Below, one piece after another: positions 780 through 47,575 of a DNA stretch of 64,000 nt. The position numbers were made by a program, and so were the translations under genes. This stretch comes from Sphagnum compactum (Eukaryota). Within the stretch, counting starts at the first letter, position 1; every line of letters starts with the position of its first letter. The DNA is taken from positions 7,678,213 through 7,742,212 of the forward strand of contig OZ234493.1 in NCBI GenBank assembly GCA_965153455.1, given 5' to 3'. Below the pieces are notes generated by a model. That model had not been told where the DNA came from, did not search any database, and saw nothing but the letters and a program-made list of their open reading frames with translations.

Positions 780-1500
780 ACCAAATTGAAATGTGGTTTG
801 CAATCAAGATTATGATCACTTGACCAATTTTTGCTTAGAAAAATGAATTTTTCTAGATTGTCTCTAGATTGTCCAATTGTAAATGGCATGTCCTTAGGTT
901 TATAAATATGCCCATTGAAAAAAAATCCTCATTCTCAATTTGCGATCCTATAATGCTTAGGACTTGGCAAGTTAAAAAATCAACAATAGGAAACATGGTT
1001 TTACATTTTCCTCACCATTGAAAAAAAACATTTGATTTCGTTGGGATCCACTTGGTAATGTTTGAAAATCAATGACAAGTTCTTTCGCAAGTTTAATTGT
1101 GCTAACACTCTACTAAAAAAATCCAAACTTGAATCTTCATCAAGTATTTGTTTTACACAATACTTTAAGTTCTATCATTAAATGCAAATGATGATAGCAC
1201 TTCATAAGCATAGGATCGCCTATCATATTATTCAACAATACACACCTTCCTTGCAACCAATAAAAGAAAACATTAAATGAAGGCTTTTAAACTTAGGGTC
1301 TAACATCAAAAATAACATATTGGAACTTTTTTTCATATTTTTTAAAAAGAAAAGAAAATTCCAAAACACCACAAATTTCTTTTCTAATGTTGGAATCAAA
1401 CAAAGTGAATTCAAGAAAAACCCCAAAACCATCATCAATCAAATTGACTTGGGTTGGTGAATTTGTAATTTCTTCCCTAAATTTTAAGCACATAATAGTA
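780..1500 (-). mobile_element. Degenerate hAT-superfamily transposase remnant (C-terminal half and dimerisation domain)
   Basis: Minus-strand translation gives 'NMLFLMLDPKFKSL' (hAT LDPRFK motif; ORF 1232..1438). Around 1030-800 it gives 'QW*GKCKTMFPIVDFLTCQVLSIIGSQIENE..IFINLRTCHLQLDNL..KFIFLSKNWSSD', matching the hAT dimerisation domain (WW...FP...LA..IL.I..S...ERIFS). Many stops and frameshifts. The element may extend further right into the AT-rich 1.5-2.8 kb region. Confidence 0.75.
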
Positions 1501-3719
1501 GTAGTTTACAATGCATCATAAAATAACTAGTGGTTATTAGACTGGTTCAAAACATTCACAACAGGAGAAAAAAAATCTATAATTATTTTTTAAATGTCCC
1601 AAGTAAGAAGAGGTGGCATTCTTTCAATGATTTTGACAATATTATGTTTGCTGTAGCAAAGGATAATGATATCCTTGAATTGTAAAGCCTCTTGGAACAT
1701 AATGATTTTGATAATAAACCTACAATTAAAATTATAATTACAATGTTAATGTTTTCTTCTAATACAATCCAAAGAAGACTAAAATATAAAATAAGCAAGT
1801 AATAAATATTAGAAATTTACTTTTGTTTTCAATAAACTATTCAATTTTTGGGGTTGAAGATGAGAATTTTCATAAGCCTTGTTCCATTCATGTTTGCTTT
1901 TCCCAAATTTTAAGGCCAAATTATACATTTATGTAAACTTAATTGTGTAAATTTGATTGAAACATATCTCAAATTTCTATAACTTTTTCATTAATTGTAA
2001 CATATTAACATGTTTTTAAAAAACATAACCAAAACAAATATTCTGAAAACTTTCATCCAAACTTAAAGCCTCACATTTCCCAATAAATTTTAGGACAATT
2101 ATCATGGTATTCAAAATTGACTCTTCATTTTTGACATAGGTAATGATTTTTCTTTGAATTCTTAATTCATATTGGGGTCCAAATTTTTAAGGTGTATCGT
2201 GACATTGCATCATTTTTTCTATATTTTCAATTTAGTCTTATTTTATCATATAATGACACATCTATGTATGATTATGGTGGAATCTAAAATTGCAGTGGTC
2301 TAGAATATGATATTATGAAATTTAAAATTTTTTGATTCAATAATTTGATGAGGATCAAAACATAAGGAAAAAAAGGATTTTATTAAAAATTAAACCCTTT
2401 TCATCTTGGGTAATACACCTTAAAAGAGTTTTACCCATTGATCAAATAATTTTGTCAAATTGTTAGCTGAGGCTTGACCAATTGTCTTTATTGTTTCAAA
2501 CAAATCAACATTCACATATTTAGGCTACAAACCAAATCCTAAGAAGTTAATGATAAGAACAAATATATCATGAACCTCCTAAGACATCCATTAATTAGAA
2601 CTTGATATTGCATAAATACAATTTACCAATTTTGACAAAATATACTGTTTTTTAGTTTTCTTCACCAAATTTGATAATAATTCTTAGAAAAATATTTTTT
2701 GGATGGGAAGACAATTTGAAAACACAAGCGTAAAATCAAATGCTTCAACTAAATGTTTTCTCCAAATTGCAAAGATAATTGATTCTTCACAACTAAGAGA
2801 TTAAGCTTTTGCAAAAATTCTTTTTGTTACACATCATACTTTTTACAAAAGATTTTTCACACCCAAAAATTAGATATTGCACTTATGAGCGAGCAGCCTA
2901 CCAGGGCTAGACGGTTATTCAAAACTGCACCAAACTCCCTCCAGGTTTTTGAAATAACTGGAACCAGTGGTTCTTTGATTATGAATTTTTTCAAAATATT
3001 GAGAACTGGTGGATTATTGACCAATTCAAAAAACCACCCAACACTTGACAAATTTGTATAACCTTAGACAATACCAGCCTTGCGTCGGCATGATCTCAGT
3101 AATGACCATGTATCAAACCAGTCTGGTATTAGATAGTGCTGATACCTAACATATAACCTTATTGGTGTAGCATTTCCTTCACAAATATTCTGGTTGATGA
3201 CCTACTGGTTTGGTTGGTGGTCGAGTTTTTGATATTACCTCATTTGAGTAACATGGCCATTTTGTGAGGAAAACTTAGGTACAAGTATGTTCTTCATTGT
3301 TGATGTTGAACTTTGAAGCTGACAACATATGATATAGTAGAATATGGATTTGGCCCGCCCTTCCCAGGGTGAATGTGAAAAGCAAGGTTTGGTCTGGGGC
3401 TGTTGTGTTCTATATAGACACACAGTTGAAAAATATTGTCATTCACTTGATTTTTAATCAATTGTGTCCAATTGTGAATGCCAAGGTGAACGTGCCTAGT
3501 GGGGTACCTTCACCTTCTTGAGTGAGGACCCTAAACCCTAAACCTATATTGGAAGAAATGGAAAATATTAAATTTGGACCAAGAATCAGGTCTGATTTTC
3601 AAAATCAAAATTGAATTAATTTTTTTTTTAAAGAATTGGATCCAGAATTGGTTCCATAGTTCGTTTTACATTTAGAACCACAATCAAGAGCTGTGATTTT
3701 GGAAAAAAAAGAAAAGTGA

Positions 3720-3900
3720 ATGGAACCGAGGTTAACCTGTAATCAACCATTGGTTCCAATCTGAGTTAGTAAGAACCAAACTGGAACCAGGTCTGAGTTT
3801 CGGAACTGGAACTGGAACTGGAACTGGAGGTTTTTGAAGAACCAGACTCAGAACCTGGATCATGGTTCCATTAATGTATTGAACTGGAGGTTCTGCATAA
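3720..3900. repeat. GGAACT/GGAACC-rich low-complexity repeat
   Basis: (GGAACT)x4 at about 3802-3825 plus scattered GGAACC/GGTTCC motifs. Related motifs occur at about 2900-3010 and 33780-33890. Confidence 0.5.
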
Positions 3901-6452
3901 AATACTAAACAAACTGCCCAACAGTGCTTTCTACCATGGTATGGTATCAGTGCAGGTGCAGATTGCTCACCCAAGGCAATGTGGAAACCTGTTGAAACGC
4001 ACCCCAAGGTTTAGAAAAGTCCCATGATAGTTGAACCATGGTCAATTTTGAAAGGCAAAATGTTAGAAAATTCCCATTGCAGAAGCCTAACGAAAGGTTA
4101 GAAAAGTCTGTTAGTGGAAGCATGGTGAAAGGTTCATGGTGGAAGCATGGTGAAAGGTTTCGAATTCCCTCTCTGACTTGTAGCAGCCAAATTTTGGCTA
4201 GGCTCTGTTGTAAATGATGGCCAGCCCACCTAACCTCAAGGGAAGTCACAAAATAAAAAATCCTGCCACAGAGATATCTGCAACAAACAAAAAGATAGAA
4301 TGAAACTCAGAAACTCAGATTTGGCCAAATTTGGTGCTAATCTGAGTTCCAATCCCCCTTGAAGCCCAGTGTCCTTTTTTCACTGTTTTTTTAGAAATCT
4401 CACCCCTTTTATGACCAAACAAGCTTTCCTTACTTTGCGGATATCTCTGTGCAAGAAGAAGCCGGGTGAAAAACAATTAGGTTACAAAAGTCTTGATGTG
4501 GGAAGCCAGGTGAAATATGAGAAAAGTCCCATTGTGGAAGCACCAGTGGTGAAAGGCAAAAAAGCAGCTCAAAATGTGGGTGTGAAATTGACTAAGTTAC
4601 TTCCAACAGGATTTGCTTGCTACTTCGTCGCTAGGGCAAAAGCTTGGCTGTCATTCCATTCTTCTTCTTCTCCTTCTTCTTCCTCCTTCCTGCCTGTGCA
4701 CAAGCGTCCTTCCTAAAGATCCTCGACCATCTCGGTTTGTAGCTGGTGCTTCCCACAAATTTTTCAGATTAAGTGAGAGGAACGCTCGAGAGCTCTGTAT
4801 TAAGTGGTAGAGGTAACGATGGGAGGATGCATAACTAGTCTCGTGTCGACGACTCGGTGAGAGCTCGCTGAACACTTCTTTGGTACTTATACCTGGCAGG
4901 CCGGGCTTGGATGCCTCCGTGTCGCCGTGCTGCAGCGTTTGATAAGCGTTGATGAACTGATGTTTGTCCAACGACGAAGCAGGCCAGGGAACATATTATA
5001 TCGGACTAGTCTAGAGTGGCCGCCGTGATCGACGATATTCGTGGATGTGTTGGTGGTGGTGCAGGTGAGGAGCGGCGCGCAGCGGCGTTGGGGGTGGTGG
5101 CCAGTCTCATACAGCAGCTTTGGTTCGTTGCACCTGAACGAGACTGACCATATTAACCTTTTGTGTGGCTTGAGGACTACCTAAGTCACTTAGAAGTTTT
5201 AATGAAAGCTGGCTTAGAACATTATGAATCGCGGAATCTAGAAAACGTTTTGGTGCATTTTCGAGAGACTTACTACATCTTTTGGTGTACCTATGATGGA
5301 TGATGATATGCTTCTCCTCTCAGCAGCTCGCAGAGTAAAGCACAAGCTCCTCAAGGCCCGCTGCTAGGGATTGTAAGTAATACGTGGGTTTTAAACACGA
5401 ATTTGCTCCAGCCGCTTTGCAATAACGTTGTTCACCAAGGTCGAGGCTGTTTCTAGCTAGCATAGATGTTGACCTGATCAGCAAGTCCGTGATTTCTTTA
5501 AAGTCATATACACTTTGACATCGGGGAATCATTGTCAGGTTCGTGCAGGGCCGGCCGTCGGACCTGGCGGAAATTATACCACTACATTGGATCTCATAGA
5601 GCATAGACACTTGACGTTACTAGAAGCTGATACACCTCTAGACTTTTACATTTTGTGGTGGTTGTCCCAGTTTCACACATCTCCAGGAGTTTGTGACGAA
5701 ACTGACAGGCCTCTGAAGCAAAGCTTCACCTAACTCATGATGTGGTCCACATCATGAAAGGCTGAAACTTGAAACCATAGCATTTGGCCGCAAGGAAATT
5801 GTGGAGTCCGCTGTGGGAAAGATCAGTTGGGATAGTCTTCACGTGACACGGACCTCGATTGCATCCCTAAACACGCGGCTTACTCGTCTGTCTTTTCTGT
5901 CGAATGTATAATATTGTGTGTTCAAGCTCGCGGATTGAGGAATTGCACAGTTTCTTTAGCGGAAGCTTGTAGATGTTTTTATCAGTTGGTTTCTTGAAAC
6001 CAGAATTAATATGTTGCGTGTTTTCCATCTCAGTAGAATCAGATGGGGTGCAACAGCTTAATATTGATCAAACAATTTCCTCAGACTATAGACGACGATG
6101 CTAGCTAGGCTACTGGCATAGAGAGACGCCAGCGCCCAGAGAATATATGCGTTGTTGACATCCCTCACGATAAGACCATGATTTGACCAGGGCGTCGATA
6201 TACTTTTGAACAACCAAGATCCAACAAGGTATTTCTTGGTTTGCAGACTACCACCACAGTGGGTCGGCGCGATCTCCATCAATTTAATTCTCATGATTTT
6301 TGCTATGTCTCATGCTCCGCTGCATTTCCTGTGATTGTATACATAGAGCTGCATCCATATGTTACAAAATATATAGATAGAAGAAGGCGGCGAGTCGAAG
6401 ACAAGAAGTTGACTTCAGTCTAGCCAATCTGCAGGAACGTCCTGGTCCAGCC

Positions 6453-9400
6453 ATGGGAAGGGTGAAGCTCGAGATCAAGAAGATTGAGAATCCGACCAAC
6501 AGGCAGGTGACATACTCCAAGCGACGCAATGGGTTAATCAAGAAGGCATACGAGCTCTCGGTGCTTTGCGACATCGACATTGGTCTTATCATGTTCTCAC
6601 CGTCCGGGAAGCTCACGCAGTATTGTAATTGTAGGTTCGCTGCTTCCGCCTGAAAGTTCACTTGTGGATTTCAACACAATATTGTGCTCGGTCGTGTCGG
6701 CTTTTTTGGTACTGAGGTATCTGTTGCAACAACCTTACATGGTGATCCTGCTGTACAGTACAGCTTCAGATTCTAGTACAAGAAAAGGTTCTCTCTCGTG
6801 GATAGGGAGGAACAGGTTGAAGAAGTGCTTAAGGGTTTCATGAAGAAGATGGAAGAGTGGTCCTGTCAATGATCATAATATTGACGTTGAATTCTCGGGT
6901 GGGGGGGATGCCGCGGGGAGCAGGATGGAAGATGTTATCACTCGTTTCGCCAATCTGCCGCTGCACGAGCGGAACAAAAGGTACTTGTGGCCATGATATT
7001 ATTCTTGTATTGTTCGAGCTGATTCGGAGCTCTTCTTCTTCTCCTTCTTGAGCTCCAGCTAGTGAAATTAAGTGGATTCTGCCTTAAGCGCTCAGTTCAT
7101 TTTCAGCGAGGTTGTAGCGCGCGGATCATACGGCAGATCATCAGATGGCCAACTCTTCTCATGACTTCAATTACAACGTTCTACTAGCTGTAGTCCTGCC
7201 GCTCTCCTCTTTCCATCTCCTCTTGACATGCCTTTGATACAAGTTCATTGAGATGCTCATTACGCTCTCGGGAACTTCTTCCTTGTGGGTATCTCTATAC
7301 AGTGTTTGTCAAAAGTCTTGACAATCTCCTGGATTGAGCGCTTTCTGCACCAGCACTGCTTCACAGAATTCAGCAGGTTTTTGACAAGTTTGTCTTACAT
7401 CATCAAAACCCAGACTGTAGTCCGTCATGGATACTGATCAATCTTGGGCATATTGTATGTGTGCGTGCATGATTCTCGCCATTTCTACATCCTCAACCCA
7501 CACGACATCAACCTGCAGAAAGAGCGAGAATCTGGAGGTAAGCTTTGGATATAACCTTCTGGTGTTACTAACCGTGTAGCTATGACATATGCAATCTCAA
7601 CGGATGCACGATGAAGCTGATCAGGTGTTATAATGAGAACACCAAGAAATCTAGTAATAATTACTTAGTTCCTCATGTGAAATATATAACGGATGCAACC
7701 TTGCTTGGACAGCATTTGCACAAGACCGTGAAGAAGCTTGCAGCAGGAGAGGAGGATCGGGTGTTCAGCTATCAGGTGGCTTCCGGATCAAGGTGATGAG
7801 CCGGCGCCTAGATATAATATCAGTTATAAGGCTGCATCGTGAGCTGCCGCACTTGCATCTCAAAATTCTGTCCATCTCCTCTTGAAGATTGATCTTCTGG
7901 TGTTTATCTTAATTACAATCACTTCTGCAGCTGGCTACGTCTGGTATTTCCAGGAATATTTCTCCAACAGCCTGAGATTATAACGCTAATTAACGTTTAA
8001 ATATTATATGATAGGCTCGGCAAATCATGTGTGTGCGGAATGTGAACTCTTGCAGTGAGAATTATGATATTGCGATGTTGCAAGAAGAGATGAAGAAGCT
8101 AACACAAGAGAAAGAACTGCTGGAACAACGGGCAAGGTAAAGAAATTCTTCGTGAGGGTCGCGGTACCTCCTAGCTTCTGTGCAATTAGTACTGATCCCT
8201 GACAACACACTACTGTGCCATTGAAATCTACCTGAATCGTCTCTTGGATCATGTCCGGCATTGGACATCATCAACTCTGTCGTTTGTTGCTTTAGCATTA
8301 ACGAAGCTGCTGAAGTTGGAGTCCACGAAAGGTCAATGCATACACAATGCAAGTGTAGGAAATGAAGGGAGTGGGGATGATTTCTATATGTGCCTGCAGA
8401 TTAATTCTTGCAGATGAACAAATGCTTCAACGTGTAACATCGGTCCAGCAACTGGAAGACATGGAAACAGAACTAGAACAGGCTCTTGAAAGAGTTCATG
8501 AACGTAAGGTACGATATACGTCTTCAAGTACTACTAGCTGTAGTTTAGCTTACTCGTTTCTACTCATGCTTTTGTGTTCAAATTCTCAAGCTCGAGTACG
8601 CCTCACATGAGAGTCACATATCTTGTCATGAAGCTGTCTGAAGGAGCAACCATTATTGTGTCTCATGGGGTTCCTCGGGGTTGAGCAGAGCTATGTCATG
8701 AACAGCACCTTATATGGTCAATCTGCCAGCGGCATACAAAGACAGGTGACACACAATTTTCCCTTTGACATTGGTTCTAAGAAGGATTTCTAAAAGGTAT
8801 AACTAAGAGCTTTCCCACATTGCAGGTGCATAGGAAGTTGTACGAAAACTCGCTGTGATAATTGATTCCCCAGACATGGCATTCTTCTTCTTTACATCTT
8901 CTGTCCCCCTTGAACTCTTGGTCGTCACCTTTTATCCCTCTAGTAATTGACAGCGTGCATGACATGCGAGTACTCCTGCAATGATCTATAGCAGATGTAG
9001 ATAAGCTAACGAGCGTGCTGCGATTAGCGCGAGTTCATGCAGGGGACCAATATGCGGCTGATGGGCATGCAGCATGGAGAAGGAGCAATGACAGGCACAA
9101 AAGCTGCAGCTCCCAGCTCGTTTTTACATTGGAATATCATGCGAGAGCGTGATCAACCAGCTGCTGCTACTCTTCAACAGTACATAGACCATGATCAGTC
9201 TATTTTACTTGCCCAGATGCAGTCCAGGTAGCAGCAGTTCTTGAGTATGGCGAATTGCTTTTACTAGAGTATGTGATCAGGGATTGCTCCAATGTATTGC
9301 ACATCATCGGTCAACAAGAATCTGATTGTTTTTTTTTTGTTTCTTTTTTGTGTCTCGCGCCGTTCATACATCAGTAAGGAACTGGGAAGTACCAGCGCCG

Positions 9401-36868: not shown

Positions 36869-39145
36869 TTAGAACAAGATGTCTTCATCTTCCCCTTCAC
36901 CAATAATACCATCTTGATCAACCTTGTGACCAGCGTCTTTTCTGCTCTCTTCCTCCAACAACAACTTGTTTCTTGCAATCTGTTTTTCAACCTACAATCA
37001 AAAAGAAGAAATTTTAGTTACATAAAAAGATCCTGCCTGTTGCTGACTGTCATGATCAAACCACAATCTCCACATGAACCAGTGCTTCAGCCACATAATA
37101 GTAAGGAACAACACAACCAGCATAGCATTCCAAGATCTATTTCTTCATCTTAAGTGTCTGGTGGACAAATATTATGAGATGGTGGACTAGACACCACTGA
37201 AAAAAAACAGCACATACAGCAAGATGTTTGATGTCCTAGAATGATATCCTCAGCATCCATGTAGAAGTTCACTTTGCACAGCCAAATGATAAGCTATGAA
37301 TGCATATCACCATAAGATTTCCTTATAAATTCAACACTAAATATGTTGATCAATGATCTACCAGTACTCCTACCAACAGAGCATGCATCCTGGCTTGTGA
37401 ATAAAATTCTCAAGCTCAGGATGTCAGAGTGAGATCCCTTCGCTATTTTATTGGCCTAACCTGCTCCAATGTTCATATGGATATTCATCGCCTATAAACT
37501 GAAACCAGCAGATAAGCCTATCTGCTTTCACATAGAGAGCTGTGCTTTCCAATCCCAAATGCGTGATACAGATGCAGAAGAGAAAAATCTCTTATAGTTT
37601 CCAAGGAATCAGTGTCCAACCTCATCAATTGACAAAGTACTTGGAGAAAGTCTGAAGGAACAAACACTAGGGTACATTCCATATATAGCCTCTAGCATTT
37701 GTACAAGTCATCAAGACTGGTAGCATCTGCATGGTACAGTTAGGCTGAATAAGGAGAAATAAAGGGGGCAAATTACATTAGTTGTTTTTGGTATCAGTTC
37801 CAACCAAATGACTAAACCCTAACAAATCAGATATCTTGGTTTAAATATATGTGAGTTGAGCTAGAAGCATGCTCCCAATTTGCCAATCCACAATCCATTA
37901 CTGCAGATTAAGAACCCAGAAGTACTTGCAACAAAGCTTGAGCTCAAGAAAGAAGTGGATTCACAATCAGAGCACAAGCTTTGTAATAATGAAACCATCA
38001 GGATGTCCTGGCTCAAAGATGCAGGAAACCCTAATGGTTGGAAGAGTCATGGTCCAAGTTCCAAATGAAGCCTTAGGATGGCCTGCTTCAAAGATGCAGG
38101 AAACCCTAATGGTTGGAAGAGTCATGGTCCAAGTTCCAAATGAAGCCTTTAGGATGGCCTGCTTCAAAGATGCAGGAAACCCTAATGGTTGGAAGAGTCA
38201 TGGTCCAAGTTCCAAATGAAGCCTTTAGGATGGCCTGCTTCAAAGATGCAGGAAACCCTAATGGTTGGAAGAGTCATGGTCCAAGTTCCAAATGAAGCCT
38301 TTAGGATGGCCTGCTTCAAAGATGCAGGAAACCCTAATGGTTAGAAGAGTCATGGTCCAAGTTCCAACTATTCTGGTCGTTCTCCTTCCTCACATTGTCA
38401 GTATCAGATACACATGCGCCGCTACATTGCAGCAGGAGATCAAGCAACTATCGCAAGACTCCTACTCATTCTTGTCAGCACATTATGATAGAGGTCTTAC
38501 TTCTTTCTTCTTGTAAGCCTGGACCTTCTTCAACCTGAAAAACTCTTCCCTCTCCAACTCATCAAGTTCGCCTTTAATGTACTGAATAGTATTCTCAAGC
38601 CGCGGTTTCACCACGTTCTCCAGAGCATTCACTCTCCGGTTGGTGGTTTTGATGGCCTCATCCAGCGTTAGAAAAGACGTCTGCAAAGACGCTAACTCCA
38701 CCAGAATCTCAACCGCCTTGACGAAAGCCGATTTACAGAGCTGGATCTGTTGTCCGCCTCTAGCCAACCCTGTCAAGTCGTTCTTGGTCTCTCCAGCCTC
38801 ACTGAAGTGCTCAAACTTGGGCAACTTGACGCCGGCCACATTCTCCTGCCTGGCTCGCACCTTAATGATGGCGGTGTCCACGTTCTCGAACACGATGTAC
38901 TTAATATTATCCCCAGCCGTATACTTAGCTTCCGTCAATGCGAAAGCCGACGCTTTCATAATCTCCCCCATCTCTTCCTTCGCCTGCACAATCTTCTTCA
39001 GAATTTGCCGGAACTGCATGGTGAGCGCATCACTCTTCTTCTTCAGCAACTGGTGGCCCTTGGTGGCACCTACAAGCCGTGCCTTCACCACCCCCATGGT
39101 GGTGATGGTTGGCACCACATTCAGCCGCTGCCCCGACCCCGACAT
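36869..39145 (-). CDS. VHA-D: V-type proton ATPase subunit D (255 aa, 2 exons)
   Basis: Exon 1 is 39145-38501 (MSGSGQRLNVVPT...GHQLLKKKSDAL...TNRRVNALE...ELDELEREEFFRLKK..KKKE|GTAAG). Exon 2 is 36991-36869 (TAG|VEKQIARNK...GEDEDILF*), with the typical DEDILF C-terminus. Confidence 0.96.
37988..38367. repeat. Intronic minisatellite, 75-76 bp x 5, in the VHA-D intron
   Basis: The AAAGATGCAGG anchor occurs at 38015, 38090, 38166, 38242 and 38318. The copies are near-identical. Confidence 0.95.
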
Positions 39146-39305
39146 CTTGCCCACAGAAACAGCAACGGCAACAGCAGCAACCACTCCAACCTCCTCCTAC
39201 TTCTTTCCCCTCTTGTGCGATCCGATGCAAAACCATAAAGAGTGGGCAAAATCCAAAGACGACGCGAAATCCAAACTCCTTTGAGAGCGGAAGAAGAGCT
39301 TGTGC

Positions 39306-39314
39306 AAACCCTAG
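39306..39314. promoter_or_regulatory. Telo-box in the VHA-D 5' region
   Basis: AAACCCTAG about 160 bp upstream of the ATG. Confidence 0.4.
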
Positions 39315-39464
39315 AGCAGCAGAACGCCAGTGACTTGTTTATGGCCTTTGCCCTTGTGTATGCAGCGAACAGCCAAGTCTCGGAGTTTTTGTCCCTTGGC
39401 CATTTCCGGAGGCCACAAACGCCAACACATTCAAACTCTTTTTACATGAGAAGCGTCCCTATCT

Positions 39465-39815
39465 TGAGGCCCTCTTTATCTTGAGACCGTTCGTACCCTT
39501 CCGAGGGTCTCTTATCTTAAGACCCTTCCAACCCTTCTGAAGGTCTCTATCTTGAGACCCTTCAGACCCTACCAAGGGTTTCCTTCGCACCCTTCCCAAT
39601 CTTAGACCCCTTTTGACTCTTTGAACCTTTTCAGAAGTCCTTATCTTGAGACCTTTTCGACCATTTGGACCCTTTTGAAGATCTTTATCTTCAAGCCCTT
39701 TCCTACTTGAGACCCATTTGATCCTTTGGACCTTTTCTAAGGTCTTTATCTTCTACCATTTTGACCTTTCAAACCTTTTCAAAGCTCTTTGTCTTAAGAC
39801 CCTTTCTAACCCTTT
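39465..39815. repeat. Degenerate tandem array of TATCTTGAGACCCTT-like units (about 35-50 bp period)
   Basis: About 8-9 recurrences of (T)TATCTT(G/A)AGACC and GACCCTT motifs between the VHA-D promoter and the gypsy remnant. Confidence 0.65.
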
Positions 39816-39849
39816 GGAAAAGAAATTCACCAAGGATCAACCAATAATA

Positions 39850-42510
39850 CTTTTGGAATATGAAAAAACTTGTTTAGTTGAAGGTTCAGGTTTTATTTTT
39901 TTATTTTTTTAAACGTCTCTTACAAATGATGCATGTGATATCCTTGGCTCAAGCTAAAAGTAATGATATCATCGATATAACATTTGGCAAAACCAAAACT
40001 CGACAACACTTGATTCACGATCCTTTAAAATTTTACAAGGGTGTTCTTGAAACCAAATGGCAAAAACTTTCATTAGTATCAAAATATTTCTCATCAAAAT
40101 AAATTTTCCAAAGTGTTATTTTGACTTTGTCACCCTCCTTCAATGGTAATTGATGATAACCAAATCACAAATACAAGGTACTAAAAACTTTAACTCTCAT
40201 GAAGCATCAAAAATATCTTCCAATAGAGTTCTGGCATATTGTTTGAACATGTATGCTTATTCATTGGATAATAATCCCCACACATGCAACACACAATCCA
40301 ATTGCCAAAAATGTCCTTATTGTCTAACATCAATATTGTCAAAGCATATTCATCCCTAGAAAATTCTATTAAATCTACATTCAACAACTTTAATATCCAA
40401 ACCTAAACTAAGGCCCTCTCCACCTCACGAAGCTTGTAAGGTCTCTTCAAAATTAGACTATCATTTTCCCATATGATCTGATATCTTACTCCTTTAATTG
40501 ACCCAATTCTTTCAAATTGAAAGCAAACCATGTCCAACATAATCTTGCAATAACCATTGTGTTGTGCACATCTCTTCCCTTATAACCATTGGACCAACAT
40601 CTAGTTCCCATGTGGTCATAGTCAACAGTACCTTGGGCTAGGATGACGAACTATCCCAGTTACCCAAGGCTAAAAACGTAACTTGTGGTTACTATGCAAA
40701 ATATTGGGAGGTACCACACTATTTTGGTGCCTTCACATCACCATTCTCCTTCCCAACACCCATTGAATTTATCTTGACATTTTTAGTCCCACATATGCCT
40801 AGGGTTTGCAACTTATGTTGTTACAACATTACCCCCCCCCCCCCCCCCCCCGGCACCAACATGGTTATTCCAATCGGTTATGCAACAAGTGGAGAATAGG
40901 GTGGACGAACCGGAAAGATTGTGCCAAACATGTTTGTTTAACCGAAACTAAATTAAAAAACCATGTGAGATAATTAAGGTTCATAACTTGCCCAAAAATC
41001 GACCTATGAACTCCTTTAGAAATGTCGAACTTGGTTGTGATGCCAATGTGCAAGCCCATGGCCCATCTTAAATCATCTTGGGGCTTCCATTCCTAAATGC
41101 TCGTGAATGTGGAAAATTCAAAAAATGTTGGTAAGGATGCTTGTGGAAGGCCAACCTTACTAGCCATTGTCAAAGGTGGGTAATTATCATAACAAATCGT
41201 GCATAAGTGGTGTCCTAAATCCAATATGTTATCCACTAACCATTTGGTGATTTGGGATGAATTGATATGTTTGTTAAATCAACTCTAATGGTGCTAGGTA
41301 AATCCACAACTAACAAAATTAATGTGTTTGCAAACCAATTGCCACAACATCCACTTGCATTAACTCAGCAATCCAAGCTTTGATCTAATGTCATCTGGCC
41401 AAAACAATTGGCCACAGGTCTCCCAATGGTAGATATTTTCCCAATATGTATGCACATGGCCACATTTGTGTGATTTGCAAATGTTACAACACATGAGTCA
41501 TTTCCCAAAAAATTCTTAATTTAGGGTTTGAAAGTCTTTGGCCTATGTTAGCCTATGAAAAATTGTTACACATCCATCCTAGAATGCCTAGATCTATTGG
41601 TTCAATCCTATTGAAATCTCGCACCTTAACAATGTGTTGTTGTTTTATCACAAGAAATCTTAAACAATTGATGTTGGTAATAAAATGGGATGTTGTTGTT
41701 GCAACATCTTAACATGACATCTAGAAGAAACAACTCGTGGATTTTGTTTTACATAATGGTATCATCATACTTAAATCCTTGATTGCAACACTATGACTAG
41801 ATTAGAATTAATGCCTTTAAACAACTTTAATAAGCATATCCCATCCTTGGGAATATCCCATTGAATAACCTTAATGTCTAATGGATCCAATCTTAATACC
41901 CCATTACCAACATTCACAAGTGTCTATGGGCTTGGTGATGAAAGAATGTGTCAAGCCTAATTAATAATATGACTAACCAATGCATGTAGTTTGGTCAATG
42001 TGCCCCATGATGGGAGTTACAGTTCAATGTGAAAGCCTAAATGAGTGATCTCTTGTGATCCTAGCATTGCCAATTCCTTATTGGAAGTTCATCCCAATCA
42101 TGGATGTTACCCTCCAATAGTTCAAACTCATGTGGAAGGTTTAAAACTCCATCCAACATAATGGATTTGTTGGATTTTCTAGCTTGCCACCTAATGAACC
42201 TCACTGACAATGAAGCATTGTAGTTAGTTCTCTACCATCTTAGGCGATAATATACAATTTCTTTCCAAAAATCAATGGTAATCCCCAAGGGATACGAAAT
42301 TGCACCCCAATCAATATGTCATAACATGCGTGACCACTCCTTCAACTAATATTGTAGTGTAATCTATTAGTTTGGTAAGATTAATTTGGATCACAATCTT
42401 TTGTTTAATTAACTTTTAAATTGTCTCTAAGCCATCCATTGATGTCAAAATGTGATATGGGCATGGTCCAAGATCAACATTAGTCAATTGAAGACTGTCA
42501 ATAGTGACTA
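39850..42510 (-). mobile_element. Degenerate Ty3/gypsy pol fragment: aspartic protease, DNA cytosine methyltransferase, reverse transcriptase
   Basis: Protease-like 'DLGPCPYHILTSMDG...GVVTH.YDILIG..YPLGITIDFWKEIVYYRLRW' (about 42480-42235). RT 'LIEFSRDEYALTILMLDNKDIFGNWIVCCMCGDYYPMNKHT' (ORF 40190..40387), then 'FGYHQLPLKEGDKVK', 'KFLPFGFKNT', 'AKCYIDDIITFS' (about 39990-39955) and 'HMHHL'. No LTRs, RNase H or integrase visible. Confidence 0.88.
40940..41890 (-). pseudogene. DNMT3-like DNA (cytosine-5)-methyltransferase domain embedded in the gypsy pol (pseudogenised)
   Basis: C5-MTase motifs in the correct order. I: 'GICLLKLFKGI' (41842-41810). II: 'YHYVKQNP'. IV: 'PIDLGILGWMCNNFS*A' (Cys codon 41570-41568). 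V: 'LSNPKLRIFWEM'. VI: 'AYIL' followed by a frameshifted GAA AAT ATC = ENI (about 41450-41432). VIII: 'DVVAIGLQTH*FC*LWIYLAP'. IX/X: 'WAMGLHIG...RSIFGQVMNLNYL' (ORF 40865..41059). Confidence 0.8.
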
Positions 42511-43632
42511 ATTATTTTAGGTAAATAAGTATATACATAAATGAATAAATAAAAATTATTTTAGCATTGATTTAAAAATAATAACAACAAATTATAAATT
42601 TTCTTGTTGTCTAGTTTCATTTGGTTAATTAAAAAAACCTGGTTTAAAAGCCCATTAAAAAAACCTAGTCAAAAAGACTAAATCAAATTGGACAGGTTGA
42701 AATGGACTTGTCCAAGATGACTAGTTAGTCAAGTTTGTGAATGTCACCTTTTGCTCTTTTTTGACCTAATTTTTCAATCAAATAAACTATGAATTCTTGT
42801 AGTGAAGATGGAGCTTGAATCTCTCTTGTTGACCATGATGTGATCCTCACAAGAAAATGTTTTTCTACATATTTTTGAATATTTTTCCTTACATTTGTTT
42901 TACATACATTTTCATACGATCTTATAAAAAACTCTTGTTTTAAAATCTTATGGGGATTTTGCAAGATTCATAAAATTATGCCATATAAAATAGACATGCC
43001 CATTGTGGAACACAAGTTCATAACCAAACATTTATCCATATATTTCAAAAAAATTTGAAATTCAAAAATAACTTAACAATAAAAAAGAAGCAAGAAGAAA
43101 ATGAACATATGTCTATCAAGAAAAGAAACAACATACGTCCGTAGACCAAAATGCTTTACAAGATGCATCAAACCCTCTAACTAAAAGACCCAATATTTTT
43201 TCTCATTTCTTATTCACTTTGAACAATTAAAAAAGAATGGGTGCACCAACTCGAGCATTACAATACCTTTTTTAATTTCAAAAATCCTCAAACTATATTA
43301 AGGATCTTAGTTCCACTTACTTACCTTCCCAAATCAAACATTACTTCCAAACCCTATATTTTCCTCAGTTTTTGTCCATTTGAAGTAATGTTTCATCACA
43401 ACATGTGTGCCAAGTGGAAGTTCACAATGTGTAAGGAAAAATATTCAAAAATATGTAGAAAAACTAACCAAACTATGTCAAAAGATTTTATGCTCTTCAA
43501 AGAATTAAGTATTTGGACACTTGCCTGTTTATCATGCCCCCATTGAAAATGATAAAACCTTTCAACTGAATATTCTTTACATTAAATAACCGGCTTGAGA
43601 GCACCATCCAATCATGAATATTATTTGAAGAT

Positions 43633-45471: not shown

Positions 45472-47575
45472 ATGGAGGTATGTATGGGTTTTCTTCCTTT
45501 TCTGTGTTCTTCTTCCTCTCTTCATTCCTTTCCTGTAGGTTTTACAATTTGGGAAATGTATCTCTTTTTTTTTTGCTTTTTTGTTTCCACTTTCGGTGGT
45601 ATTCGCTACTGAAATGGTCATCTCCTATTACCGATATTCAGACAAATCAGCAACGGAAAAGAAAATCTCTCAATTCGGTGGTCTGTTTCATGGTCGGCAG
45701 TACACGCAGTGGCAACAATTCACGCCCAGGCATGAGCCTGGGGGCTATTAGGGTTCGCAGTTTGTGGTTATGAAATCCAATGACGACGAGCTTGGTAATT
45801 TGGATGTGAATCTATGGGTCTTATTCTGTGCATTGTTGCTACTGTATTAGGGTTTAGGTTAGGGTCTGTCTTTTCTACTTTCTATGCTGTTGGGGTTTCT
45901 CTATCTTTTCTAGAATGTCAGGAAGTTCATGGAAATTGAATAGCCTGTAGAATTATGTGGATACATTTTCAAGAACATTGTCTGCAGAAATCTGAATGCA
46001 GTGGTATAGCATGGTGAACCTGTGTATGTGGCTTCTAGAAATCTTTGTAGCACTGGTGGGATTGTGGATGCAATGCATAGGTGGTTAAGATACCTTGCGG
46101 TGTTGAAGGAGTTTGACTAGTCCCCAGTTTGTGATAGGTTTGAGGTTTGACAAATGAAAACTAGGAGAATTGACATTTCAGTGTTATGCTTGAAGTCTGA
46201 TATGGTTGTGGGATTGTGGAGCTAACACTACATTGCCTGCTACCTGCAACTTTTCCAGTATTTCTGGAGAGGCCGAACACAGAATAACAGAGAGCTGGTA
46301 GAGAGCCTGAAGCAGAATGGAAGCCTCCAGACCAAGAGGGTTGCAGATGTCATGGAACAAGTGGACAGAGGGCTTTTTGTGCCATCTAATGAGCTTCCTT
46401 ACATTGATAACCCCATGCCTATTGGTTACAATGCTACCATTTCTGCTCCTCACATGCATGCTGCCTGCCTTGAGCTGCTATCAGGACACTTGCAACCTGG
46501 GATGTGTGCCCTTGATGTAGGTGCAGGTGAGAATGCCTTCTATGTACCAGTGGACTTGTATACTCTATTAGTTGGAGGTAGAGCCTTTATTTGCACTTAT
46601 GATTCGAGCTCCCTTTTTGGTGTGAATTTTCTGTCCAGGGAATCAAATACTTCAAAGAATCTATTAGCTGGTTGATCTGTTGCCTGAAAGTCATTATGTT
46701 TCTCCAATCAGATTGATTTCCTCTCTATTCTGTAGTTGTAGGTCAAGCCTTGTGATTGATGCAAAGATGCAACTTTTATGTTGTATTGTGGGGAGGACAG
46801 CATTATGTGGTTGTATGCCATTATGCTTGACCAGTGCAGTTGATGCTGGCTTCTGTTGAATGTGTGTGTCTGCAGGCACAGGTTATTTGACAGCAGCATT
46901 TGGTATGATGGTTGGGAAAGAAGGCCGTGCAGTTGGCATTGAACATATACCTGAGCTCACACACCAGGCAATTGAGAATGTGCAGAGAAGCAGAGCTGGT
47001 CCTTTGCTTGCATCTGGCAGTCTTTCCTTGCACACTGGAGGTTAGTATTACACCTCATCACTAGCAACTGAACTGTGTGTAGTTTTGACCATGAAATTGT
47101 TAGGGCACATTCATTTTAAGGTTCTGGAGACTGGAAAGCTCTGCATCTATGAATTTTTTTTTCTACTTGAATTTAAATCATCTTTTGTAATGTTGGTGAA
47201 TGTGATACTGACATGTTGTGACACCTCTGTCTATGGAAATAGGGAGGAATATGAAGTCTCTGATTATCGAAAATTGTAGAAAAGATTTGCCTAGAGATCC
47301 TGATTGTCATAATGTGGTATGCAGATGGACGAGAAGGATATCCAGCAGGTGCACCGTATGATGCTATTCATGTTGGAGCTGCTGCTTCTGAGGTTCCTCA
47401 AGCCCTTGTTGATCAATTGAAGCCTGGGGGCCGGATGGTGATACCTGTCGGAGATATTTTTCAAGAGCTCACAGTGATAGACAAAGCCCCTGATGGTTCT
47501 CTGAAGCAATGGGGTGCCACCTCTGTCCGATATGTTCCCTTAACCAGCCGCCAATCTCAGTTGGGGCACAACTAA
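45472..47575 (+). CDS. PIMT: Protein L-isoaspartate O-methyltransferase
   Basis: Exons 45472-45477 (ATG GAG|GTATGT), 46259-46526 ([17 protein letters not shown]...[14 protein letters not shown]...ALDVGAG), 46876-47040 ([23 protein letters not shown]) and 47325-47575 ([34 protein letters not shown]...VRYVPLTS). The start may lie further upstream. Confidence 0.93.

Follow-up and report, generated by a model that had tools for sequence, protein, structure and literature searches.

A decayed, probably Ty3/gypsy-type retrotransposon fragment whose relatives carry a DNMT3-like methyltransferase domain flanked by protease and reverse transcriptase

Results

A truncated pol fragment on the minus strand

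The window (the whole stretch of 64,000 nucleotides analysed here) contains a minus-strand pol fragment at 39848–42502, in which the C-terminal part of a protease (PR) is followed by a DNA methyltransferase (DNMT), a linker, and a reverse transcriptase (RT) that extends to its YIDD motif (Table 1). When 148 proteins were compared with the whole window by tblastn, 197 HSPs from 127 proteins were obtained at E < 1e-3, all on the minus strand within 39848–42502, and the best match outside these limits had an E value of 0.025. The limits are almost identical to those claimed in the initial annotation (39850–42510). The fragment is truncated at both ends. No LTRs, repeat pair, or second copy of the fragment were found in the window, nothing gag-like was found in it upstream of the fragment, and it contains no RNase H or integrase downstream of RT. 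Therefore, the assignment to gypsy rests on the relatives of the fragment.

Table 1 Features of the fragment (window positions) and the evidence for each.
Feature	Position	Strand	Evidence
Protease C-terminal part, in three frames	42235..42502	-	tblastn with P0107 and P0111: three short collinear HSPs, summed E 2e-5 to 1e-4
PR-to-DNMT linker, with LLEGN stretch common to relatives	42017..42234	-	P0100 HSP 42306–42091; P0085 42300–42082, E 0.008
Methyltransferase N-terminal part, motif I	41663..42016	-	P0100 HSP, 38% identity over 123 residues; A1 profile 2–75, i-E 1.2e-11
Motif I, LKLFKGI	41830..41810	-	aligns with LFGGI in relatives
Methyltransferase middle part, other frame, motifs IV, VI, and VIII	41256..41618	-	P0100 HSP, 36% identity over 121 residues, ungapped; A1 87–215, i-E 3.4e-23
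Motif IV, GWMCN (GWMCNNFS)	41579..41556	-	aligns with invariant GWPCQG
Motif VI site (ENI at 41443–41432)	41447..41432	-	site of ENV in relatives
Motif VIII, TH*FC*LW	41327..41304	-	aligns with AHRxRxWW
Methyltransferase C-terminal part, motifs IX and X	40883..41236	-	P0100 and P0120 HSPs; A1 214–341, i-E 2.2e-12
Motif IX, LRWAMGL	41071..41051	-	
Motif X, IFGQ (IFGQVMNLN)	40999..40973	-	aligns with LLGQ
DNMT-to-RT linker, with homopolymer G-run at 40849–40832	40535..40882	-	reads cut at 40822–40862
RT N-terminal two thirds through YIDD (39979–39968), 3′-truncated	39848..40534	-	RVT_1; P0120 residues 1365–1564, E 5e-13 (tblastn)

The protease piece, where the fossil breaks off on its 5′ side, includes a YPLG...W motif at 42294–42235 that lies within the P0100 HSP as well. 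A retropepsin-like segment had been placed at about 42480–42235; a C-terminal part was indeed found at 42499–42235, but the match is weak and the catalytic Asp motif (D-S/T-G) is not recognizable in this piece. The gypsy-type RT with YIDD was borne out by the match to the RT of P0120 and by RVT_1, which reached 29.2 bits on the fossil (E 9.4e-7), 0.4 bits below the Pfam cut-off of 29.6. The spacing between DNMT and RT resembles that of ca. 360 nt in the metagenome loci L003 and L008.

The methyltransferase had been described as a segment of about 310 codons. The domain is present and complete, though ruined, at 42016–40883, but it measures ca. 378 codons. Motifs I, IV, VI, VIII, IX, and X were all found (six of six sites) in order and aligned to those of the relatives; the earlier readings of motifs I, IV, VIII, and X hold. 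Motif VI occupies the exact site of ENV in the relatives, although it is one base off the flanking homologous frame, in which ILGKY is read at this point. In related contigs, one base is missing at 41440, and ENI is thereby in register. The catalytic residues of the fossil are ruined: motif IV has Met at the site of Pro, giving MC for PC, ENI is out of frame, and both Arg sites of motif VIII are occupied by stops.

Homology of the methyltransferase segment

Direct searches with the fossil gave little. Pfam scans of 33 stop-free pieces and three X-read-through frames matched RVT_1 only, with no match to DNA_methylase, and a phmmer search of PDB returned nothing up to E 10. Taken literally, the C5-methyltransferase HMM match expected in the initial annotation did not materialize on the fossil itself. 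We take the Pfam blank as a failure of sensitivity on decayed sequence and not as absence; the identity of the segment as a methyltransferase rests on transitive and family-profile homology.

A read-through translation of 40868–41923 was compared with 1.84 billion proteins, and 92 matches were obtained at E ≤ 1e-3, including 11 at E ≤ 1e-10 and 2 at E ≤ 1e-30. Pfam scanning of the 23 longer relatives among these 92 placed PF00145 above its cut-off in seven and yielded one weak match to gag-asp_proteas; the PF00145 cut-off was passed by eight of the ten relatives in a further Pfam scan. Marchantia Mp_4g09160 (P0100) aligned with the window in four collinear HSPs spanning 42306–40883, with a summed E of 4e-45 or 6e-42 in two tblastn runs. 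We also built a profile from an alignment of 18 relatives (A1; 369 positions), which matched the six-frame translation of the window three times, collinearly, covering positions 2–341 of the 369, and nowhere else. The catalytic motifs PCQ, ENV, and RxR are invariant or almost so among the 18 aligned relatives, with the P, C, Q, and G and the E, N, and V columns invariant.

Searched against PDB, the A1 profile matched DNMT3A/B/C with E values of 1e-22 to 1e-16, followed by DRM (4e-14 to 2.5e-12), DNMT2 (3e-10), and M.HhaI (2e-9), and P0085 alone ranked the classes in the same way. An AlphaFold model of P0151 (pLDDT 76.7) was submitted to Foldseek, and only DNMT3A/3B chains appeared among the listed ranks 1–49, the best with an E of 1.4e-16 and a target-normalized TM of 0.80. 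Thus, the host enzymes mammalian DNMT3A/3B/3C are the best matches of the family in both sequence profile and fold, and the methyltransferase domain of the family appears closest to DNMT3A/B/C, as judged on the relatives and not on the fossil. Both the profile ranking and the predicted fold sustain the label DNMT3-like for the family. The motif order from I to X is that of host DNMT3 and is not rearranged, unlike that of DRM. The family differs from host DNMT3 in that no PWWP or ADD surrounds the methyltransferase, which is instead embedded in gag-pol, in a predicted extra insert of ca. 35 residues modelled at low confidence (269–303 of the model), and in motif IV, where alignments to PDB place PCQG against PCN of DNMT3A. 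PCQG at this motif also occurs in many bacterial and DNMT1-type enzymes. The closest ESM Atlas clusters all belonged to PF00145; one was streptophyte and two were phage, with equal scores for the phage and streptophyte clusters, which leaves the classification unchanged.

Architecture of the family

The better-preserved relatives have the architecture gag(CCHC)-PR-DNMT followed by RT-RNaseH-INT-PHD finger, encoded either by a single ORF or by a pair of in-frame ORFs separated by one stop after DNMT. In P0120, PR lies at residues 663–711, DNMT at 953–1137, and RVT_1 at 1443–1596, followed by RNaseH, INT, and PHD; P0125 and P0119 are organized similarly, and their DNMT and RT parts were collinear with the window by tblastn. 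Pfam domains in the relatives include zf-CCHC in P0125 and P0097, Asp_protease_2 in P0120, P0125, and P0104, and, as the C-terminal reader module, the PHD finger PF00628. The order PR-RT-RNaseH-INT within Pol was seen in P0120 and P0125 and, e.g., in L024 and L027. A sister architecture, in which DNMT lies between RNase H and integrase, was found in P0137, P0124, and L033.

A metagenome scan gave 42 loci, 34 of which are family members. RT followed DNMT in 21 of the 25 loci with at least 1200 nt downstream and was absent in the other 4, and PR preceded DNMT in 22 of the 26 loci with at least 900 nt upstream, no recognizable PR being present there in 4. These counts agree with the earlier expectation that the methyltransferase-like segment is consistently located between PR and RT. 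LTR-like direct repeats ca. 8.7 kb apart were present in L027 (342 bp, 92% identity) and L004 (307 bp, 94.5%), and L024 has long ORFs of 1359 and 1043 aa. Most copies are decayed too, and a stop-free DNMT stretch was found in 4 of 29 metagenome copies. The only usable pair of six, L024/L026, gave a dN/dS of 0.14, which is too thin for any statement on general constraint. At the DNA level, the fossil and the 42 loci shared four short matches only (65–84% identity), and none of the loci was a close intact relative suited to a substitution analysis.

The PR, DNMT, and RT pieces of the fossil are collinear with the full polyproteins P0120, P0125, and P0119, with the spacing usual for the family, in agreement with the earlier reading, in which a DNMT3-like domain of a gypsy-type fossil sits between protease and RT. 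We consider it very probable that 39848–42502 (minus strand) is an old, truncated, and non-functional fragment of a Ty3/gypsy-type LTR retrotransposon, whose family encodes a DNMT3-like C5 methyltransferase between PR and RT. We class the element as KnitGypsy-Dnmt3-like.

Decay of the fossil and its sharing among species labels

The homologous frames of the fossil contain 25 in-frame stops (9 TAG, 9 TGA, and 7 TAA) and several frame slips. Six stops fall in the N-terminal, seven in the middle, and one in the C-terminal part of the methyltransferase, and ten in RT. The observed/expected ratio of CpG is 0.25 in the fossil, and the whole window is depleted as well (0.39). An origin of the stops at sites of Arg, Gln, or Trp in the relatives was also considered; several fit (in motif VIII and at the two codons that follow motif I), but with the mix of stop types the pattern is not clean, and CpG depletion is all that we claim here. 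In one run, the depth of polyA RNA was 0 over 39302–42475, save 1.5 in one RT bin, and the neighboring V-ATPase D gene had a depth of 40–91 in the same run. With its stops, frame slips, two truncated ends, and zero polyA reads in this run, the copy is dead, as had been claimed; the fossil itself is presumably inactive today, and its functional consequence is nil.

The same fragment occupies the same locus under three species labels; in organisms B and C, contigs run across each end of the fossil into the same flanking sequence. The fossil diverges by ca. 1–3% in organism B and 6–8% in organism C, with many indels. Because it is common to the three labels, it is a dated relic. The fossil lies ca. 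550 bp upstream of the V-ATPase D gene, whose product has its closest matches among liverwort proteins (89% to Marchantia), in keeping with the bryophyte-like host suggested at the outset. A search of sequencing runs listed no RNA run, and gave small shares (0.06–0.08) in runs labelled moss metagenome and plant metagenome and in those of organism C; apart from run X11, these shares carry no weight in the present analysis.

Alternative explanations

The order PR-DNMT-RT would be accidental if a fragment of a host DNMT3 (or other host methyltransferase) had fallen by chance in or beside an ordinary gypsy element; the single copy and the lack of LTRs in the window would fit such an event, and host DNMT3 genes exist in bryophytes, as noted in passages of Yaari et al. 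(2019). Against this, the same order and spacing are found in the single-ORF polyproteins P0120, P0125, and P0119, the order is repeated in the independent metagenome loci at the frequencies given above, and the fossil matches gag-PR-DNMT proteins of Marchantia best (E 4e-45). Furthermore, the summed contig depth over the methyltransferase was far above that of the single-copy flanks in three runs (e.g., 785 versus 36 in X9); crude as it is, this measure fits a repeated family. Since the same PR-DNMT-RT order recurs in metagenome loci, a chance nested fragment of a host gene is effectively excluded, and we regard accidental insertion as very unlikely. The same low probability attaches to the idea that the stretch resembles a methyltransferase by chance or belongs to another class (bacterial/viral or DNMT1/CMT type). 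The blank Pfam and PDB searches with the fossil itself, PCQG in place of PCN, and the phage clusters that equal the streptophyte cluster in the ESM Atlas are compatible with it. Chance, however, is difficult to reconcile with E values of 1e-54 to 1e-6 against the 1.84-billion-protein library and with three collinear profile matches. Another class is opposed by the PDB ranking of A1, in which DNMT3A/B/C precede DRM by at least 8 and M.HhaI by 13 orders of magnitude, by the absence of any DNMT1-named chain among the 57 PDB matches listed, and by the listed Foldseek matches, which are all DNMT3A/3B.

It could also be proposed that the host co-opted the fragment, e.g., as a regulatory piece upstream of V-ATPase D, and that it was therefore kept in three species. 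The short distance to an expressed gene and the presence in organisms A, B, and C would suit this idea; however, the divergence in B and C with its many indels resembles ordinary drift, no RNA was seen, the sequence carries 25 stops and is depleted in CpG, and common descent explains the sharing without any function. We regard co-option as extremely improbable, even less likely than the two explanations above, and retain the reading of the fossil as a decayed member of a methyltransferase-encoding gypsy family.

Discussion

Comparison with known retrotransposon-borne methyltransferases

Retrotransposon-borne DNMTs are known from dinoflagellates and one charophyte alga, according to passages of PMC5890265. 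The initial annotation had cited this work (de Mendoza et al. 2018) correctly: KnitGypsy-Dnmt3 is described there in the Pol ORF of a gypsy element of Klebsormidium nitens. In that description, KnitGypsy-Dnmt3 shares with the present family a non-rearranged DNMT3-type domain in a gypsy Pol polyprotein, a streptophyte host, and intronless copies. It differs in its host, a charophyte, whereas the host here is bryophyte-like and the named relatives come from liverworts, a Sphagnum moss, and a zygnematophyte. As far as descriptions can be compared, DIRS-like repeats are given for the K. nitens elements (PMC5890265), and L027 and L004 have plain direct LTR-like repeats. No K. nitens-named protein occurred among the 53 and 75 matches of our protein searches. 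SymbioDIRS-Dnmt3 and SymbioLINE-Dnmt of Symbiodinium, as portrayed in the same paper, also carry a C5-methyltransferase within the Pol ORF, and two domain positions coexist among them, as PR-DNMT-RT and RT-RNaseH-DNMT-INT do here; they are, however, a DIRS element with tyrosine recombinase and a LINE, from another eukaryotic supergroup. In yeast, SymbioDIRS-Dnmt3 produced de novo CG methylation, and KnitGypsy-Dnmt3 produced no methylation, a result that the authors judged inconclusive (passages of PMC5890265).

Distribution and possible role

The named relatives belong to Marchantia, Calypogeia, Sphagnum, and Spirogloea, and Marchantia gene models with intact motifs lie in a cluster of 18 near-identical sequences. 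Some relatives in liverworts and peat moss are apparently intact, as read from their sequences. In the main texts of openly accessible papers, we found no description of retrotransposon-borne cytosine methyltransferases in bryophytes, and the opinion paper PMC6338049, in one of its passages, argues from the absence of such elements in land plants, "such as tracheophytes". Tentatively, and with a little less than even confidence, we suggest that DNMT3-type gypsy elements may be an old streptophyte lineage that survives in liverworts (Marchantia and Calypogeia), Sphagnum moss, and the host of the window, and whose long-ORF copies (Marchantia and L024) may be mobile and may methylate themselves. 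If so, such copies would be an unrecognized input to bryophyte methylomes.

In live copies, the methyltransferase would be made as part of the polyprotein and, by analogy with the proposal in de Mendoza et al. (2018), might methylate DNA reverse-transcribed from the element itself, or its new insertion. These retrotransposons bear a type of enzyme normally used for silencing retrotransposons. The value of the fossil is that of a pointer to a large family sharing this architecture, which extends over bryophyte genomes and many environmental contigs. Such a land-plant system, which includes the tractable model Marchantia, would be suited to two questions: how a transposon benefits from encoding a de novo methyltransferase, and whether these enzymes spill over onto the genome of the host.

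The PHD finger at the C-terminus may direct integration or methylation towards certain types of chromatin. Chromoviruses, which are gypsy elements with a chromodomain after integrase and were reportedly described from mosses by Novikova and colleagues in 2008, also have a gypsy-type pol in which a chromatin-reader module sits C-terminal of integrase. In the present family, this module is a PHD finger, as opposed to the chromodomain of chromoviruses, and the pol carries a methyltransferase.

Searches with the sequence of the fossil and its relatives

Around the Ty3/gypsy pol fragment of the window (39848–42502, minus strand), 68 stops were found in a single minus-strand reading frame of 39700–42700, and any gene there is therefore dead. 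No relevant match was obtained when 33 stop-free pieces of the fossil were searched with Pfam, and reading its three frames through with X gave RVT_1 as the sole match (29.2 bits, E 9.4e-7, cut-off 29.6). The methyltransferase-like stretch also had no match among PDB sequences. The Pfam searches thus yielded no C5-methylase match on the fossil itself, the outcome that, taken literally, the initial annotation had named as refuting its reading.

We then used the read-through of 40868–41923 as a query against 1.84 billion representative proteins. Of the 92 matches obtained at E ≤ 1e-3, 11 reached E ≤ 1e-10 and 2 reached E ≤ 1e-30; the majority of the 92 were short ORFs of equally decayed copies. 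When 23 longer matches were scanned with Pfam, DNA_methylase (PF00145) was above the cut-off in 7 and a weak retroviral-protease match was found in 1. P0085, a relative of 1775 aa, contains gag with a zinc knuckle, protease, and methyltransferase in this order. Exact look-ups assigned two matches to Calypogeia fissa and one to Spirogloea muscicola. A search with the P0085 domain provided 53 long proteins, including six Marchantia polymorpha gene models; many of the 53 were polyproteins in which RVT_1, RNase H, integrase, and a PHD finger were present. When shorter proteins were searched in the same way, 75 more were obtained, four named Calypogeia and one Sphagnum troendelagicum. The relatives' gene models are public yet unnamed ("hypothetical protein" or "unnamed protein product"). 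P0159, a member (455 aa) of this eukaryotic retroelement methyltransferase family, bears an NCBI label that assigns it to a "Candidatus Obscuribacterales" metagenome-assembled genome; its contig is probably of plant or algal origin and was binned with bacterial ones.

Extent and motifs of the fossil methyltransferase

When 148 proteins were compared with the whole window (tblastn), 197 HSPs at E < 1e-3 were obtained from 127 proteins, all on the minus strand within 39848–42502; the next best match elsewhere had an E of 0.025. Marchantia Mp_4g09160 (P0100) gave four collinear HSPs (summed E 4e-45), and in P0120, P0119, and P0146 the methyltransferase C-terminus followed by RT was collinear with the window. 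A1, a profile HMM of 18 relatives' methyltransferase domains, matched the six-frame translation of the window in three pieces, which were collinear and together spanned positions 2–341 of 369 (i-E 1.2e-11, 3.4e-23, and 2.2e-12), and nowhere else in the 64 kb, indicating that the domain is complete in extent but ruined. The protease is the weakest-supported part (three short HSPs, summed E 2e-5 to 1e-4); its homology starts just past the relatives' catalytic Asp position, and no Asp motif is visible in it.

Motifs I, IV, VIII, and X, as originally proposed, could be aligned with the relatives, as could motif IX. The ENI proposed as motif VI occupies the place of ENV but lies one position out of register, and the frame homologous on both sides reads ILGKY there. 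Since one base at 41440 is missing from related contigs in two runs, so that ENI is in register there with the upstream residues, we accept it as the likely relic of motif VI.

Table. Features of the window and contigs covering the locus.
Feature	Window position	Strand	Remark
Protease tail and linker	42306–42091	−	P0100 HSP
Methyltransferase, N-terminal part	42016–41663	−	P0100 HSP
Motif I	41830–41810	−
Methyltransferase, middle part	41618–41256	−	P0100 HSP, different frame
Motif IV, GWMCNNFS	41579–41556	−	Relatives: invariant GWPCQG
ILGKY	41447–41433	−	At ENV place
ENI	41443–41432	−	Motif VI relic, likely
Motif VIII, TH*FC*LW	41327–41304	−	Relatives: AHRxRxWW
Methyltransferase, C-terminal part	41236–40883	−	P0100 HSP
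Motif X, IFGQ	40999–40973	−
Homopolymer G-run	40832–40849		DNMT–RT linker; reads cut there
RT	40534–39923	−	P0120, P0119, P0146
36-bp tandem repeat	39476–39579		2.9 copies
V-ATPase subunit D, first exon	38486–39301
76-bp tandem units	37988–38367		Five units, 97% matches
Open stretches	46226–46675, 46860–47045	+
Organism B, record 17	38338–40148		22 differences
Organism B, record 22	41839–42712
Organism C, record 1	38338–40523		134 differences, 36 gaps
Organism C, record 4	40498–43300

The methyltransferase as an integral part of the element

A methyltransferase between protease and RT might be a nested host-gene fragment, and its recurrence in other copies bears on this. In Pfam scans, single ORFs carried the order PR (663–711), DNMT (953–1137), RVT_1 (1443–1596), RNase H, integrase, and PHD (2300–2344) in P0120, zf-CCHC (558), PR, DNMT, and RVT_1 in P0125, and PR, DNMT, and RVT_1 in P0119. 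Scanning JGI metagenome contigs with a motif-IV pattern gave 42 loci, of which L001–L034 are family members (E ≤ 3e-49) and L035–L042 are distant. RT lay at most 1300 nt after the methyltransferase in 21 of 25 family loci having at least 1200 nt downstream (exceptions L012, L028, L029, and L033), and protease preceded it in 22 of 26 having at least 900 nt upstream (exceptions L014, L015, L016, and L020). The DNMT-to-RT spacing is ca. 350–390 nt in the window versus ca. 360 nt in the loci. The recurring order in polyproteins and metagenome loci and the similar spacing exclude a nested host-gene fragment, and the evidence indicates that the methyltransferase is integral to the element. The observation in the initial annotation was confirmed, and its interpretation is supported.

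Direct repeats ca. 8.7 kb apart flank the coding region in L027 (342 bp, 92% identity) and L004 (307 bp, 94.5%). L024 has two long same-frame ORFs separated by one stop after the methyltransferase, ORF1 (1006–5085; 1359 aa, gag-PR-DNMT) and ORF2 (5098–8229; 1043 aa, RT-RNaseH-INT-PHD), indicating a gag-pol-type boundary between DNMT and RT. This layout accounts for the many gag-PR-DNMT proteins of 1150–1775 aa, including the Marchantia models. In a second architecture (P0137, P0124, and L033), the methyltransferase lies between RNase H and integrase (RT-RNaseH-DNMT-G-patch-INT-PHD); therefore, the domain either changed its place in pol or was acquired in two separate captures. The family ends with a PHD finger (PF00628) after integrase (P0120, P0146, P0137, L005, L011, L014, L024, and L027), at the place where chromoviruses have a chromodomain.

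Class and proposed role of the methyltransferase

Class comparisons were made with the relatives' domains, not with the fossil. Against PDB, P0085 matched DNMT3C/3A/3B best (E 5.5e-10 to 4e-8), followed by DRM (2e-4 to 6e-3) and M.HaeIII. The A1 profile ranked DNMT3A/B/C (1e-22 to 1e-16) ahead of DRM (4e-14 to 2.5e-12), DNMT2 (3e-10), and M.HhaI (2e-9), with no DNMT1-named chain among the 57 matches listed. In Foldseek, the AlphaFold model of P0151 (pLDDT 76.7, pTM 0.81) matched DNMT3A/3B chains only among the matches listed (ranks 1–49; best E 1.4e-16, target-normalised TM 0.80). DNMT3 thus ranked best by profile, single sequence, and predicted fold, in agreement with the "DNMT3-like" reading.

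The 18 aligned relatives have invariant or nearly invariant PC, ENV, and Arg motifs, and dN/dS was 0.14 in the one usable pair of intact copies; on these thin data, both point to a working enzyme in the family. In live copies, the methyltransferase would be translated inside the gag-pol polyprotein, beside RT, and the PHD finger may, speculatively, contribute chromatin targeting. According to de Mendoza et al. 2018 (PMC5890265), newly reverse-transcribed DNA is the proposed target of such enzymes, Symbiodinium DIRS enzymes methylated CG sites de novo in yeast, and the K. nitens gypsy enzyme gave no signal in yeast, which the authors considered inconclusive. KnitGypsy-Dnmt3 is a known example of the same kind, a DNMT3-type methyltransferase in a gypsy element. 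The words moss and Physcomitrella have no occurrences in the text of that paper, and full-text searches of the open literature found no bryophyte description of such elements. The new aspect seems to be the presence of such elements in land plants. The fossil in the window is itself inert, and what makes it of interest is the family to which it points.

State, age, and setting of the window copy

Of the 25 in-frame stops in the homologous frames, 14 fall in the methyltransferase, 10 in RT, and 1 in the protease tail. The frame changes at least three times, apart from the local slip at motif VI. Neither an LTR nor gag, RNase H, or integrase was found in the window. CpG observed/expected was lower in the fossil (0.25) than in the window as a whole (0.39) or in the adjacent exon (0.78). 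In polyA RNA-seq (one run, same species label), the V-ATPase D exon was well expressed (depth 40–91), and 39302–42475 had depth 0 save one RT bin (depth 1.5) whose reads continue into unlike sequence. The copy had been called dead, and the stops, frame changes, missing parts, and RNA depth bear this out.

The same fragment occupies the same locus in contigs of two other species labels (organisms B and C), indicating that insertion and truncation are older than the split of the three. In each of the three DNA runs, the element had a summed contig depth many times higher than its flanks; this value is not a copy number and is consistent with a multi-copy family. Among metagenome copies within L001–L032, 25 of 29 are fossils too, their methyltransferase stretch containing 1–18 stops, and some near-identical decayed pairs came from different samples (L014/L015, L025/L027, and L019/L021).

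The window DNA is eukaryotic. The fossil adjoins a V-ATPase subunit D gene (Pfam ATP-synt_D, 221 bits), whose protein has liverworts as its nearest named relatives (Marchantia 89%, Riccia 88%, and Calypogeia 86%), and ends ca. 550 bp upstream of its transcript start, with a 36-bp tandem repeat in between. At 38499, 68 reads have loose ends resembling a splice junction of this gene. Just past its exon, joints inside the 76-bp array in reads and contigs of four runs suggest varying copy number. The plus-strand open stretches resemble, by eye, protein-L-isoaspartate O-methyltransferase exons.
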